Shown here in pieces: positions 27,001 to 31,460 of a DNA stretch of 64,000 nt. The stretch lies in contig CAWFDF010000003.1 in assembly GCA_963814585.1 (NCBI GenBank), positions 224,001-288,000 on the forward strand, read 5' to 3'. How positions within the stretch are numbered: position 1 is the first letter of the stretch; the number at the start of each line of letters is the position of its first letter. The position numbers were made by a program. Source of the DNA: an uncultured delta proteobacterium. GTDB lineage: Bacteria > Myxococcota > Myxococcia > Myxococcales > Anaeromyxobacteraceae.

Positions 27001-30000
27001 ACCCTGGACCGCAAGCAGTTCGGGCGGCCGCTGGCCGCCACCCAGCTGGTCCAGCTCAAGCTGGCCGACATGCAGACCGAGATCACCCTGGGGCTGCAGG
27101 CCTGCCTCCGCGTCGGGCGGCTCATGGACCGCCACGAGGCGACGCCGGAGATGGTCTCGCTCATCAAGCGCAACAGCGCCGGCAAGGCCCTGGCCATCGC
27201 CCGCCTCGCCCGGGACATGCACGGCGGCAACGGCATCTCCGACGAGTTCCACGTCATCCGCCACCTCATGAACCTGGAGTCGGTGAACACCTACGAGGGC
27301 ACCCACGACATCCACGCCCTCGTCCTGGGCCGGGCCCAGACCGGCATCCAGGCCTTCTCGACCTGAGTCATCGAGGCGGGGGCCAGGGGCCCCTGCCAGC
27401 GGGAGCGTCCACATGGCCGAAGCCTGGATCGTCGACGCCGTCCGCACGCCCATGGGGCGCTACGGCGGGGCGCTGGCCGGCGTCCGCCCCGACGACCTCG
27501 GCGCCGTGGTGCTCCGCGCCCTCCTCGCGAGGACCGGCGTCCCCGCGGCGGACGTCGAGGACGTCTACCTCGGCTGCGCCAACCAGGCCGGCGAGGACTG
27601 CCGCAACGTGGCCCGGATGAGCTCGCTCCTGGCCGGCTACCCCATCGAGTCCGGCGCCTGCACCGTGAACCGGCTCTGCGGGTCCGGGCTCGAGGCGGTC
27701 GCCGCCGCGGCGCGCGCCGTCATGGCCGGCGAGGCCCACGTCTACGTCGGGGGGGGCGTCGAGTCGATGTCGCGCGCGCCCTGGGCCATGGCCAAGCCCG
27801 ACCGGGCGCTCCCCCGCGGCAACGCCACGGCCCACGACACCGCGCTCGGCTGGCGCTTCACCAACCCGGCCCTCGAGGCGCTCGGCCACACCGACTCGCT
27901 GGGCCAGACGGCCGAGAACCTGGCGGCCGAGCTCGGCATCTCCCGGCAGGCCCAGGACGCCTACGCCCTCCGCAGCCACCAGAAGGCGGTGGCGGCGCAG
28001 GACGCCGGCCACTTCGCCGCCGAGCTGGTCGGCGTGAAGGTGGAGGGTGGCGAGGTGACCGCCGACGAGGGGCCGCGGCGCGACACCACGCTGGAGCGGC
28101 TGGCCCGGCTCTCCGCCGCCTTCAGGAAGGGCGGCACCGTGACCGCCGGCAACTCCAGCACCCTCAACGACGGCGCCGCCGCCGTGCTGGTGGTCTCGGC
28201 GGACTACGCCCGGGCCCACGGCCTCGAGCCGCTGGCGCGCATCCGCTCGATCGCCGTGGCCGGCGTCCCGCCTCGGACCATGGGGATCGGCCCGGTCCCG
28301 GCCACCAGGAAGGCGCTGGCGCGCGCCGGGCGAACCCTGGCGGAGCTCCACCGCATCGAGCTCAACGAGGCCTTCGCGGCGCAGTCGCTGGCCGTCCTGG
28401 CCGGCTGGGAGCTCGAGGCCGACGACCCGCGGGTCAACGCCAGCGGCGGGGCCATCGCGCTCGGCCACCCCCTCGGCTGCTCGGGGGCCCGGCTGCTGGC
28501 GACGCTGGTCCACGGCCTGGTGCGGACCGGCCAGGCGCTCGGCCTGGCGACGATGTGCATCGGCGTCGGGCAGGGCATCGCCATGGTGGTGGAGCGGTAG
28601 CGGTCGCCGCTCCGGGGCCGCGGCGCGGCCGGTGCCCGGCCGGCAAGGTCTCGGGACTAGTTGGGGGTCCAGACGCCGGCCGGCGGCTCGAGGCAGAAGG
28701 CCTCGGCGTCGGCGGCGACAATCGGAGCGTAGAAGCTGTAGACCTGCTCGGGGTTGGTGCCGGGCATCCTGCACCGCCCGACCCGGTTGGCGGTCGGGCA
28801 ACCCGATCCCGCGGTGCCGCCGGCCGTGGCGCACTCCGCGTTGAACGCCGAGGTGTCGGCCGCGGTCGGGGTCCCGGTGGCGGCGAGGCAGTACGCCTCG
28901 GCCGGGACGTTGCAGCTGAGGGTGACGGTGGCCGGGGCGGGGGGGTCGTCGCTGCCACCGCAGGCCGCGGCCAGGATGGCGAGCAAGCCAGCGGCGGCGA
29001 GGTTCTTGGCGTTCATGGGGATTGGACCTTTCGGGGTGGAGAGGAGCGCCTCGATCTGCTGACCTGCGCCAGCGCCCGGTGTGACATCCCCGGGGCCGAA
29101 AGAGCGCTCGCCCGCCACGCCGTGGGTCCCGCCGCAGCGACTCCTTCCGGCCAGGGAAGCATGCGAAGCTGCAGGCTGGAGCCTGACGGGGGGACCCATG
29201 CCCAGCCTCGCCGAGACCCTTCGCGCCGCCGGGATGGCGGCCACCGACGCCGGGCGCCCCGAGGCGCTGCGGCCCGCGCTGGGCCGTGATCTGCAGGCCG
29301 ACTGGGCGGTGGCCGGTCCGCACCTCCAGGCCTGCGTCGACCTGCTGCGTCAGCTGCCGGCCAGGCCCCGTCGCAGCCCGCCCGAGCAGGCGGCCGCCGC
29401 GGCGCTGCTGGAGGAGGGCCGCTCGGCCCGCGAGGCCCTGCTGCGGCGCCACGCCCCCGCCATCTACGCCCGGCTCACCGCCGGTCGAACCCGCCTGGTG
29501 CGCATGGTGGAGCTGGCCGAGGCGGCGGCCGCCGCCTTCCCGGGCCTGGTGCCGGACGCCGGGCAGGTGGCGTCCGAGCAGCACCACCCGCTGCCGGAGC
29601 AGGACGGCCTGCAAGTCGACCAGGGGATCTTCTTCGCGCACGTGCTCGCCAATCCGGCCTCGGGCCTGCACCTGCTCCAGGCCATGGGACAGGCCACCCC
29701 GGCGGCGCTGGAGCGGCTCCCCGCGCTGCGGGCCGCGGGACGGGTCGAGCTGCCCCAGGCCACGCTGGAGCGGGTCGGGGTGCGGGGGCACATCACCTTC
29801 CACAACCAGCCCTGGCTCAACGCCGAGGACGACGAGACCGAGGAGGCGCTGGAGACGCTGGTGGACCTGGTGCTGCTCGACGACGCCATCCAGGTGGGGG
29901 TGATGCGCGGCGCGCCCATGACCAAGGCGAAGTACGCCGGGCGCCGCGTCTTCGGCGCCGGCATCAACCTGACCCGGCTCTATCACGGCCAGATCTCGCT

Positions 30001-31460
30001 GGTGCGCTTCATGCTCCAGCGGGAGGCCGGCCCCCTCGCCAAGGTCTACCGCGGCCTGGCCCGCCCCGAGCCGGATCGGGCCGGCGACGACGATCGCACC
30101 GAGAAGCCCTTCATCGGAGCGGTCGACGCCTTCGCCATCGGCGGCCACTGCCAGCTGCTGCTGGTGCTGGACCGGGTCATCGCCCAGCGCGACGCCTACT
30201 TCAACCTGCCGGCCCGCAAGGAGGGCATCGTCCCCGGCCTGGCCAACCTCCGCCTGCCACGCTTCGTGGGCGAGCGGGCGGCGCGCCAGGGCATCTTCTT
30301 CGACCGCCCCTTCCAGGCCGACAGCCCGGAGGGCCGGCTGCTCTGCGACCAGGTGGTGGACGGGGACGCCGAGATGGAGGCGGCCGTCGCCACCGCCGCC
30401 GCCAATCTGCTCGGCGCCGGCACGACCAGCCTCACCGCCAACCGGCGCGCCCTCCGGGTCGGGGCCGAGCCGCTCGACCTCTTCCGCCGCTACCTGGCCA
30501 CCTACGCCCGCCAGCAGGCCCACTGCGTCTACAGCCCGGCCCTCATCGACAACCTGGTGCGCCACTGGAACGCCCAGCAGCGCGCCACCTGATGGCGCCC
30601 CCGGCCGGGTCGAGGTGGCCGGGCCGGCCGGCGCCCACCCCGGCACCCCGCGCTCCAGCGTGGCACGGCCGACCAGCGGCCTCCGGTCCAGCCTCCGGTC
30701 GCTCGTCACGGCCCGCGGCGCCGGACGGGCCGAGGCGCCTCAAGCCGGCGTCTTGACCGGTCCCTGCCGCCCGCCTGCCGCGCGCCGCTCCTCGTCGACC
30801 AGCGCCAGCATGGTCGCCAGGGAGATCGAGCTCAGGGTGGCCCGGGCGATGTCGTCGATCTCGTCGAAGACCCGGTGCAGGGACCGGCCCTCGGCCGAGA
30901 GCCCCTCCGCGTCGCGCGCTCCCTCGCCGGCGCCGATGGGCTCGAAGAGCTCGATGACGTCGAGGAGCGTCACCCGCCGTGGGTTGCCGCGGAAGCGATA
31001 GCCCCCGCCGGCGCCCCGGAGCGCCTCGACCAGCCCGGCCCGACCGAGGACCCGCAGCACCTTGGAGAGGTGGTTCACCGAGATCCCGAAGCGGCTGGCG
31101 ATCTCGGCGGCGGCCAGCTGCCGGCGCGGGTCGGCGGCCAGCTGGAAGACGGCGAAGAGCGCGAGGCGGGTCGCCACCTGGACCCTCATGGCTCGAGCCT
31201 CTTCTCGAGCTGGATGAACGGGCCGGCCATCATGCCCTGGCTCCGGAAGAAGGACATGATGAGCCGGTCGTCCTTGGCGAGCATGGTGCGGACCTCCTTG
31301 ACGCCGGCCTTGCGGAAGCGCACGCACATCTCGTCGAAGAGCATGGTCCCCAGGCCGTGGAGGCGCGCCTCCGGGCTCACTCCGATGGCGAAGACCCAGC
31401 CGCTCGGCGGCGAGCCGAACTCCCAGGCGCGGACCTCGCCGACGATGAAGCCGAGCATCA

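Follow-up and report, generated by a model that had tools for sequence, protein, structure and literature searches.

A DpgC-family protein in a benzoyl-CoA degradation island of a myxobacterium is a candidate catabolic arylacetyl-CoA dioxygenase

Our analysis of a 64,000-nucleotide stretch of DNA (the window) from an uncultured member of the Anaeromyxobacteraceae indicates that the gene at 29198..30592 (+) encodes an intact homologue, 464 aa long, of the cofactor-free dioxygenases DpgC and PglA. Moreover, it suggests that the product is probably a metal- and cofactor-free arylacetyl-CoA 1,2-dioxygenase used in catabolism, an O2-dependent counterpart of PadBCD. By its domains and active-site residues the protein belongs to the wider DpgC/PglA-like family, and O2-dependent conversion of arylacetyl-CoA to arylglyoxylate is the predicted reaction. 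Across the 80 closest GTDB loci the recurring gene partner of the dioxygenase is an acyl-CoA ligase, not an indolepyruvate:ferredoxin oxidoreductase (IOR). We deduce reaction, substrate and flux from family membership, fold, conserved active-site residues, gene neighbourhoods and co-occurrence across genomes.

Results

The reading frame 29198-30592 has no internal stop, GGGGGA lies four bases 5' of its ATG, and its closest homologues share this start; a longer version from the GTG at 29081 was dropped because homologues begin at the ATG at 29198. Its best PDB match is DpgC (2np9, E 1.1e-95, residues 31-455), and the predicted model (pLDDT 89) shares the whole fold of the DpgC structures, N-terminal helical domain and crotonase domain both being present at full length (TM 0.84-0.85, 44-46% identity). 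Thus the intact, full-length DpgC homologue of the initial annotation stands, and so does the homology, while the range of 46-48% identity given there was slightly high. The score against the NCBIfam DpgC equivalog NF042432 is 422.9, below the cut-off of 530, which also excludes a dpgA-linked myxobacterial protein (354).

In DpgC numbering, counted from our alignment, the protein is identical to DpgC at E189, I235, L237, R254, E255, G296, Q299, A319 and I324, and E189, L237, R254, G296, Q299, A319 and E322 are conserved in 89-91 of 91 clade members. Following Widboom 2007 and Fielding 2007, we take the conserved residues to serve the oxyanion hole, substrate binding and a hydrophobic O2 pocket; R254, A319 and V425 figure as mutants in PDB titles. 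The substitutions relative to DpgC are K238T, G297H, A320R, V425L, K428N and V429L, V425 and V429 both having become Leu, and T238, L425, L429 and W433 are common to the clade and to proteins at the pglA position of biosynthetic clusters (see below). The alteration of K428 and F432, which a passage of PMC4618494 gives as O2-gate residues of DpgC, counts against the dioxygenase reading. Could the protein be a thioesterase or hydratase of the crotonase fold that works on aromatic CoA esters in anoxic conditions? The JGI label of many homologues ('thioesterase DpgC'), the anaerobic character of the island and the score under the DpgC cut-off would all fit. However, the full two-domain fold and the residues round the substrate and O2 sites are conserved, 24 of the 80 loci have a separate gene for an FlK-type thioesterase no more than 1.5 kb away, and a hydrolase would leave the exclusion of PaaA and the link to BoxB, described below, unexplained; we regard this explanation as very improbable.

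The gene lies in a benzoyl-CoA degradation cluster, as had been claimed. On one side are bcrC, bcrB, bcrA and bcrD for an ATP-dependent benzoyl-CoA reductase (18225..22955, -; four of four over cut-off) and had, oah and dch for ring opening after benzoyl-CoA reduction (22958..25985, -; TIGR03201, TIGR03200 and TIGR03189, all over their NCBIfam cut-offs). On the other are an ApbA-type reductase fused to a 2-hydroxyacyl-CoA dehydratase subunit, with activases, a second subunit and a CoA ligase (35132..41859, +), which would lead separately from aryl-2-oxo acids to aroyl-CoA, and hcrCAB-like molybdoenzyme genes (41856..45751, +; best match 4-hydroxybenzoyl-CoA reductase, alpha subunit in three frames). 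Between these blocks are an acyl-CoA dehydrogenase (26200..27366, +), putatively of the glutaryl-CoA type from its context only, a thiolase (27413..28600, +) whose best match, 3-oxoadipyl-CoA thiolase, is below cut-off, a presumably BadM/BadL-like pair of Rrf2-family regulator and GNAT protein (30740..31671, -), and a 3-hydroxyacyl-CoA dehydrogenase/hydratase with a thiolase (31688..34959, -), frameshifted in this assembly.

A Cys-rich putative lipoprotein of 119 aa without a Pfam match (28657..29016, -) is divergent from the dioxygenase gene. The block formed by these two genes (28602..30776) is absent from the same island in all three same-genus genomes compared, one of which (G211) retains a 52-base match to 29191-29242, a remnant that favours loss in that genome. 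A recent foreign insertion is thus unsupported, the GC content being 75% against 73% for the window. Short-read contigs from a sediment study bridge the 3' end of the gene into the Rrf2 gene (30196-30902), which rules out an assembly artefact at that junction; none of those listed bridges the 5' junction. A promoter and terminator scan found nothing.

Candidate suppliers of substrate are encoded farther off. They comprise a PaaK-like arylacetate-CoA ligase (15223..16542, +; 453 bits against a cut-off of 646), a second PaaK-like ligase (10112..11263, +), matched by the PaaK query in one frame only from residue 51, and a two-chain IOR, alpha and beta (~7761..9850, +; several frames in the assembly), which may supply arylacetyl-CoA and possibly consume arylglyoxylate. 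LIV-type ABC transporter genes lie at 11754..15226 (+). The dioxygenase gene itself stands alone, with the nearest ligase gene 12.6 kb off, which counts against the proposed role.

Elsewhere the association with ligases is close. Relatives of the protein occur on at least 523 GTDB stretches, and 49 of the 80 closest loci have an acyl-CoA ligase within 1.5 kb, PaaK-type in 30 and of another kind in 19; the PaaK cut-off was passed by 10 of the 19 PaaK-type neighbours tested. With E1 alpha adjoining in three loci and IOR in one, four kinds of arylacetyl-CoA maker are found next to the gene, and dpgA is found in none of the 80 loci. A PaaK-type gene also adjoins the homologue in all 10 actinobacterial loci fetched from a class sample and in six of eight further alphaproteobacterial loci, one of the six beside boxCB. 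Against a general rule stand the 31 of 80 loci without a ligase within 1.5 kb, the 14 of 62 loci with full flanks that have no ligase, IOR or E1 anywhere in the locus, and the scarcity of genes for later steps (boxB in none of 80, benzoylformate decarboxylase in one). On the product side, ligase, dioxygenase and benzoylformate decarboxylase genes abut at one locus (L005; 772 bits for the last, cut-off 493), and pobA comes after the gene in two related loci. On the substrate side, five related loci have an aldoxime dehydratase directly upstream and also a nitrilase.

Our own set of 11 Myxococcota orthologues resembles what the initial annotation had described, namely a position behind a single-chain IOR or beside box, bcr or hcr genes. 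In overlapping categories, a single-chain IOR is directly upstream in four, box genes lie within ~2 kb in three and two are inside a bcr/hcr island; two have no aromatic neighbour that we could see, and in three the upstream contig is too short. What finds no support is the further claim that the IOR is tied to the gene as the product-consuming step. The association is nearly confined to Myxococcota, and single-chain IOR is no discriminating pathway marker, since 12 of 13 PaaA-positive control genomes have it. Passages of PMC5109826 and PMC9765128 give the IOR reaction as arylpyruvate to arylacetyl-CoA and therefore make the enzyme a supplier of the dioxygenase substrate; it more likely supplies substrate than consumes product.

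One could still imagine a closed loop in which a single IOR both makes arylacetyl-CoA from arylpyruvate and converts arylglyoxylate to aroyl-CoA, the side chain being shortened twice. IOR is directly upstream on the same strand in four Myxococcota loci and one actinobacterial locus, single-chain IOR is available in most alphaproteobacterial carriers, and our search of this genome for an arylglyoxylate consumer gave only general oxoacid oxidoreductases, two E1 pairs and acetolactate synthase, no scanned oxoacid oxidoreductase having a phenylglyoxylate-specific name. However, IOR is as common in the PaaA-positive controls, 15 of 53 carriers have no single-chain IOR match, and the same passages of PMC5109826 and PMC9765128 either assign the phenylglyoxylate reaction to PadEFGHI or describe it as unclear. 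We hold the loop to be possible but rather doubtful; it touches the downstream step only and is compatible with a catabolic arylacetyl-CoA dioxygenase. In this genome the IOR is of the two-chain type, as noted initially, and no single-chain IOR was found.

Co-occurrence across genomes argues for a catabolic substrate shared with the Paa pathway. In 53 carriers (this genome and 52 others), DpgA is over cut-off in none, although the same search detected both dpgABC controls; PaaA is found in one and BoxB in 40. In the alphaproteobacterial family of G333, 60 of 221 genomes have the dioxygenase homologue, and PaaA occurs in 1 of the 60 carriers as against 74 of 161 non-carriers, while BoxB occurs in 57 of 60 as against 87 of 161. 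PaaA and BoxB are themselves unlinked there (48/75 vs 96/146), and a shared substrate accounts best for the exclusion of PaaA. A boxB tree of 99 genomes shows at least 16 alternations between carriers and PaaA genomes; the pair test on this tree has a bias, since it left out genomes that lack both genes. These results, together with the ligase neighbours and the carriage restricted to bcrB-positive genomes described below, support the role predicted in the initial annotation, from arylacetyl-CoA and O2 to arylglyoxylate and on into benzoyl-CoA degradation.

The exclusion fails in the actinobacterial class of G313, where PaaA is present in 7 of 14 carriers and 35 of 287 others. The six that we fetched of these seven PaaA-positive carriers fall into a single clade, marked by a GMC oxidoreductase and a ligase that is divergent (457-469 bits in the four tested). 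Such a ligase would fit a rival reading in which the chemistry is the same but the main substrate in the window's lineage is an arylacetyl-CoA of the substituted or heteroaromatic kind, such as tyrosine-derived 4-hydroxyphenylacetyl-CoA, yielding 4-hydroxybenzoyl-CoA for Hcr. Consistent with this are the hcr-like genes in this island and directly downstream of the orthologue in genome G902, pobA after the gene in two related loci, the low PaaK scores of the window's ligases, and pocket positions 251, 255, 297, 324 and 328, which differ between subclades. The family would then act on a range of substrates and take the place of PaaA in certain lineages only. We think this unlikely, given that over half of the ligase neighbours tested elsewhere are PaaK by cut-off, that a shared substrate best explains the PaaA exclusion, and that the gene for which we tested, and which all 10 carriers in the window's own family proved to have, was bcrB and not hcr.

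Within the window's own family the homologue occurs in 9 of 23 bcrB-positive and 0 of 31 bcrB-negative genomes, in line with the two bcr-bearing relatives reported earlier; 14 of the 23 have no dioxygenase gene, three of them with an otherwise matching island, which counts against the proposed role. This carriage would also suit an oxygen sink that shields benzoyl-CoA reductase in oxic-anoxic shifts, carbon flux being secondary. But most carriers elsewhere are Box-type aerobes, the genome has three matches to the heme-copper oxidase family, and DpgC turns over slowly, with a kcat of 0.15 per second (PMC4618494 Table 1); we give such a sink hardly any credence.

The genome as a whole, which is 91.7% complete, yielded three PaaK-like genes and four family-level molybdopterin-oxidoreductase matches, none of the latter in the island; neither paaA, for the PaaA epoxidase subunit, nor boxB was found. 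Benzoyl-CoA reductase is oxygen-sensitive. Since boxB is missing, the dioxygenase product would have to meet this reductase, a further point against the proposed route. Benzoylformate decarboxylase, considered as a general consumer of arylglyoxylate, exceeds its cut-off in four of the 10 BoxB-negative carriers, all four being related actinobacteria, and in none of five Box- or Bcr-positive carriers.

Discussion

How might a relative of antibiotic enzymes serve in catabolism? In the route that we propose, a PaaK-type ligase, or an IOR or E1 dehydrogenase acting on arylpyruvate, would give phenylacetyl-CoA or a ring-substituted form. The enzyme would abstract the alpha proton, and the enolate would react with O2 to arylglyoxylate with release of CoA. 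A thiamine-dependent enzyme would then decarboxylate the arylglyoxylate to benzoyl-CoA, or to benzaldehyde where benzoylformate decarboxylase is present. In most carriers the benzoyl-CoA would go to the Box pathway, in this genome to Bcr. With O2, the dioxygenase would do what PadBCD does in the anaerobic pathway, and many genomes would have it as an alternative to the PaaABCE ring epoxidase.

The Pad pathway of Thauera and Aromatoleum (PadJ, PadBCD, PadEFGHI) takes the same course, from phenylacetyl-CoA through phenylglyoxylate to benzoyl-CoA, according to passages of PMC5109826 and PMC9765128; there PadBCD is an anaerobic membrane molybdoenzyme, whereas here one soluble cofactor-free protein would use O2. 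The entry ligase family, and by inference the substrate, is shared with the Paa pathway (PaaK, PaaABCE epoxidase), but Paa attacks the ring, while the proposed route would begin with oxidation of the side chain and leave the ring for Box or Bcr. The 'DPGC' entry in CAMPER is an unrelated cyclohydrolase.

DpgC itself, the (3,5-dihydroxyphenyl)acetyl-CoA 1,2-dioxygenase of glycopeptide producers, differs from the window protein in its dpgA, dpgB and dpgD context, and in two midpoint-rooted trees our protein is in a clade apart from dpgA-linked actinobacterial DpgC. In line with the initial annotation, the genome has no dpgA-type synthase, its only type III PKS, on another contig, scoring 193 against a DpgA cut-off of 425. 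The same reaction as ours is proposed, in a passage of PMC7089894, for PglA of the pglA-E L-phenylglycine operon (pristinamycin), which would oxidise plain phenylacetyl-CoA and which the earlier comparison did not include. DpgC homologues at the pglA position of clusters ordered NRPS-E1a-E1b-thioesterase-MbtH-aminotransferase are 44-48% identical to the window protein; we infer from gene order that they are PglA. They group with DpgC (SH-aLRT 100), apart from the window protein. PglA is biosynthetic and its pathway ends in transamination, whereas the window gene has no adjoining NRPS, E1 alpha/beta, thioesterase or aminotransferase.

Since the characterised or proposed relatives are all biosynthetic, and a Tistrella clade member adjoins a fatty acyl-AMP ligase, a desaturase and a methyltransferase, one may ask whether our gene makes arylglyoxylate for an arylglycine or another secondary metabolite. 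The separate clade, the lack of DpgA in all 53 carriers tested and the lack of any NRPS, MbtH or aminotransferase near the gene among the window's annotated ORFs make this most improbable.

Taken together, the results would fit a third main phenylacetate route, hybrid and widespread, which runs through PaaK, a cofactor-free dioxygenase, an oxoacid-decarboxylating step and then Box or Bcr; we see the chances for and against it as about even. On such a reading the PaaABCE epoxidase system would have been replaced lineage by lineage, facultative myxobacteria would couple an O2-consuming side-chain step to an anaerobic ring reductase, and DpgC and PglA, the enzymes of antibiotic synthesis, would have branched off from a larger catabolic family, in trees that have no outgroup root. 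The carriers would be mostly uncultured, hence the route would have gone unseen; the literature searched held no catabolic use of a DpgC-type dioxygenase.

Phenylalanine, styrene-type compounds and many plant aromatics are channelled through phenylacetate, which textbooks have degraded by Paa when oxygen is present and by Pad when it is absent. Because homologues are named 'thioesterase DpgC' or enoyl-CoA hydratase in databases, metabolic reconstructions would overlook the route, and it could be miscounted as antibiotic potential. If true, it would explain how some genomes can have paaK and box genes and yet lack an epoxidase. The family would also supply a large natural set of cofactor-free oxygenases, which are a rare class of enzymes, and may provide a one-protein route to arylglyoxylates. 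More generally, many uncultured soil and sediment bacteria appear to use a DpgC relative to feed on acids of the phenylacetate type, a task in which it often replaces the enzyme known from textbooks.

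Results

An intact reading frame of 464 residues occupies 29198-30592 (+). Among solved structures its product is closest to DpgC (2np9, E 1.1e-95, residues 31-455), and it scores 422.9 against the NCBIfam DpgC model, under the cut-off of 530. Its structure, predicted from a 35-sequence alignment (pLDDT 89), matches the DpgC entries with TM 0.84-0.85, the next folds being ordinary crotonases at TM 0.47 or less. E189, R254 and Q299 are conserved in all groups of the family tree, pgl-type proteins included, and T238, L425, L429 and W433 are common to the environmental clade and the pgl type. 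The pgl-type proteins have a proposed substrate without ring hydroxyls and also keep E189, R254 and Q299, so these three residues are no sign of a dihydroxy substrate. Positions K428 and F432, named as the O2 gate of DpgC in passages of PMC4618494, are both changed in the window protein; the same passages report that the F432W mutant of DpgC retains about half of its turnover. The window protein is not a DpgC in the strict sense, yet it very likely works like DpgC.

In midpoint-rooted trees (FastTree, 134 sequences; IQ-TREE, 76 sequences) environmental proteins form a clade (support 0.93 and 88.5, respectively) that includes the window protein and is separate from both the dpgA-linked actinobacterial DpgC and the Streptomyces proteins of pgl-type clusters. 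A dpgA-linked myxobacterial protein (genome G005; DpgC model score 354) lies outside both the environmental clade and the actinobacterial DpgC group, so that partnership with dpgA extends beyond a single clade. In myxobacteria, dpgA-dpgB-dpgC clusters that also hold aminotransferases were seen at L091:7036-12194 and L092:6888-11649. On a Tistrella mobilis plasmid (L098:696-7137), a long-branch clade member follows genes for a desaturase, a methyltransferase of the cyclopropane-synthase type, a fatty acyl-AMP ligase and an acyl-CoA dehydrogenase, which suggests a different and probably biosynthetic use. Another member, P0135 (669 aa), carries the DpgC match C-terminally behind about 230 extra residues and is a possible fusion.

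Within about 40 kb around the gene lie a two-chain indolepyruvate:ferredoxin oxidoreductase (IOR), two ligases like phenylacetate-CoA ligase (PaaK), a LIV transporter, bcrCBAD with dch, oah and had, a beta-oxidation pair, and hcr-like genes. The module at 35132-40285 consists of a fusion between an ApbA-type reductase and one 2-hydroxyacyl-CoA dehydratase subunit, the second subunit, and two activases. Three same-genus genomes keep it (87-95% identity) and G902 has it too; it may lead from arylpyruvates, by way of aryllactate and cinnamoyl-CoA, to benzoyl-CoA. Divergent from the dioxygenase gene is a Cys-rich putative lipoprotein of 119 aa (28657-29016, -) that matches no Pfam family and lacks a paralogue in this genome. 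No DpgA exceeds the cut-off in this genome; a stand-alone type III polyketide synthase that is not DpgA lies elsewhere in it (L001, G000:C8:262225-263268). The initial annotation, a full-length DpgC homologue in a benzoyl-CoA degradation cluster that lacks a dpgA-type synthase, is borne out.

Many one-base frameshifts interrupt island genes (7761-11263, 31688-34959, 42356-44714). Short-read contigs of near-identical DNA differ by one-base indels at 34157, 43179 and 43500, so these three breaks, which are not shared, probably reflect errors of assembly or differences between strains. In G239 the IOR genes likewise appear shortened.

The island recurs in three same-genus genomes (G239, G231, G211), but there ~28602-30776 is absent, so that the dioxygenase and the small lipoprotein gene are missing together; G231 additionally lacks the thiolase. 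Did the window genome gain the gene, or did its relatives lose it? G211 retains a 52-base match (90%) to the start of the dioxygenase gene, whose GC content resembles the host's, and loss is therefore no poorer an explanation than gain. In the organism's own family (68 genomes, including an Anaeromyxobacter record; locus L002 and G884 are one and the same contig), the gene occurs in 9 of 23 other bcrB-positive genomes versus 0 of 31 bcrB-negative genomes tested. Orthologues follow a single-chain IOR in G217, G280, G909 and G915, adjoin box genes in G217, G280 and G907, and in G902 sit between beta-oxidation genes and hcr. A phylum sample gave matches in only 5 of 301 genomes, two of them dpgA-dpgB-dpgC clusters that served as controls.

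The finding is more general than first noted. A protein search gave 3691 matches at E <=1e-40 among 8000 scored, and a GTDB scan gave at least 523 stretches. The closest 80 of these, which we kept and which by design exclude canonical dpgC, come by record title from Pseudomonadota (54), Actinomycetota (9), Dormiibacterota (6), Chloroflexota (4), Myxococcota (3) and Acidobacteriota (3), with one unplaced. Neighbouring genes were called by a custom script and clustered, and the clusters were named by scanning representatives. Within 1.5 kb of the gene we found a PaaK-type ligase in 30/80 loci, another acyl-CoA ligase in 19/80, an FlK-type thioesterase in 24/80, UbiD in 6/80, aldoxime dehydratase in 5/80, E1 alpha in 3/80, pobA in 2/80, and IOR and benzoylformate decarboxylase in 1/80 each, with dpgA and boxB in 0/80 each; owing to relatedness among many of the loci, the counts exceed the number of independent events. 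A ligase lies this near in 41 of the 62 loci having both flanks of at least 3 kb, ligase and dioxygenase are co-stranded in 39 of 49 ligase loci, and ligase adjacency is found in all six phyla; the PaaK cut-off was passed by 10 of 19 PaaK-type neighbours scanned. What PaaK, the other ligases, IOR (arylpyruvate to arylacetyl-CoA, according to passages of PMC9765128 and PMC5109826) and E1 have in common is that each makes an acyl-CoA. At L005 the dioxygenase gene stands directly beside those for a ligase and benzoylformate decarboxylase, all three abutting and co-stranded, an order that points to the product of the dioxygenase.

Other arrangements recur. In L020, L021, L025, L027 and L030 (~5800-13500) an AraC regulator, nitrilase, aldoxime dehydratase, dioxygenase, FlK thioesterase and CoA ligase stand in a row, possibly a full route from plant aldoxime to arylglyoxylate. 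A 527-aa UbiD-family protein (no NCBIfam match at 1e-60), often accompanied by UbiX and CoA-transferases, lies downstream of the dioxygenase in L038, L040, L042, L043, L047, L049, L057 and L067; it is a candidate for the missing decarboxylation step or a sign of another substrate. Another recurrent feature, an MHYT-LytTR regulator with coxMSL-like genes, is found several genes downstream in L008, L009, L017, L019, L021, L027 and loci related to them; the single large subunit scanned exceeds the aerobic CO dehydrogenase cut-off, and, the genomes being related, this is possibly one event. Four related actinobacteria (L012, L015, L016, L039; ~6600-11200) have a 600-aa flavin monooxygenase-like gene before ligase and dioxygenase.

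At genome level we took 50 of the closest 80 loci, chosen for long contigs, and five Myxococcota. Among these 55 genomes, DpgA exceeds the cut-off only in the two controls, the epoxidase subunit PaaA occurs in one, and BoxB, of the aerobic benzoyl-CoA route, in 42. The baseline was a single draw of 221 genomes belonging to the same family as G333 (probably Xanthobacteraceae), for which completeness figures are not given: the dioxygenase gene is in 60, PaaA in 75 and both in 1 versus 20 expected; BoxB is in 57/60 carriers versus 87/161 others, with no link between PaaA and BoxB. The single genome with both has a member from a different subclade, beside a different ligase. On a boxB tree of 99 genomes (55 of 57 boxB-bearing carriers and 44 of 47 boxB-bearing PaaA-only genomes, leaving out five with split boxB and all with neither dioxygenase gene nor PaaA), carrier and PaaA states switch 16 times or more, so a single inheritance event does not account for the pattern; a sign test on this tree, biased by genome selection, carries no weight. 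Counter to the exclusion pattern, 301 genomes of the class of G313 gave the gene in 14, PaaA in 42 and both in 7. There a PaaK-type gene abuts the dioxygenase in 10 of 10 loci fetched. The six PaaA-positive loci fetched form one clade with an upstream GMC oxidoreductase and a divergent ligase, one having an aldehyde dehydrogenase that best matches phenylacetaldehyde dehydrogenase, below cut-off; a substituted arylacetate is a plausible substrate in this clade. Single-chain IOR does not discriminate (12/12 added carriers versus 12/13 PaaA-positive controls).

Discussion

Family, fold, residues, neighbourhoods and co-occurrence are the observations from which we infer a reaction and its downstream steps. 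The dioxygenase would convert arylacetyl-CoA and O2 to arylglyoxylate and CoA, a thiamine enzyme would turn arylglyoxylate into aroyl-CoA or aldehyde, and Box or Bcr would then take the ring. In the window genome the dioxygenase would act under low oxygen and feed Bcr, and the ApbA-dehydratase module would provide a parallel oxygen-free route; relatives without the dioxygenase keep this module. This genome has three PaaK-like genes and three matches to the heme-copper oxidase family, a family that also contains NO reductases; neither paaA nor boxB was found in it. A search of the genome for an arylglyoxylate consumer found none, and the two-chain IOR is no more than a candidate. For the window gene, substrate and flux are less certain than for PaaK-adjacent members.

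The feature is real, and a catabolic arylacetyl-CoA dioxygenase feeding benzoyl-CoA degradation is its best explanation, one that we hold with moderate confidence. DpgC itself has been characterised, as an enzyme of biosynthesis. For PglA, passages of PMC7089894 and PMC7431475 that do not name DpgC propose the oxidation of phenylacetyl-CoA on the way to phenylglycine, and passages of PMC5109826 and PMC9765128 describe the phenylglyoxylate route anaerobically, as Pad. The open-access literature, mostly at abstract level and with subscription journals largely outside it, yielded no catabolic use of a DpgC homologue. Such a use would be new for this known kind of enzyme, and it may constitute a new main route for phenylacetate.
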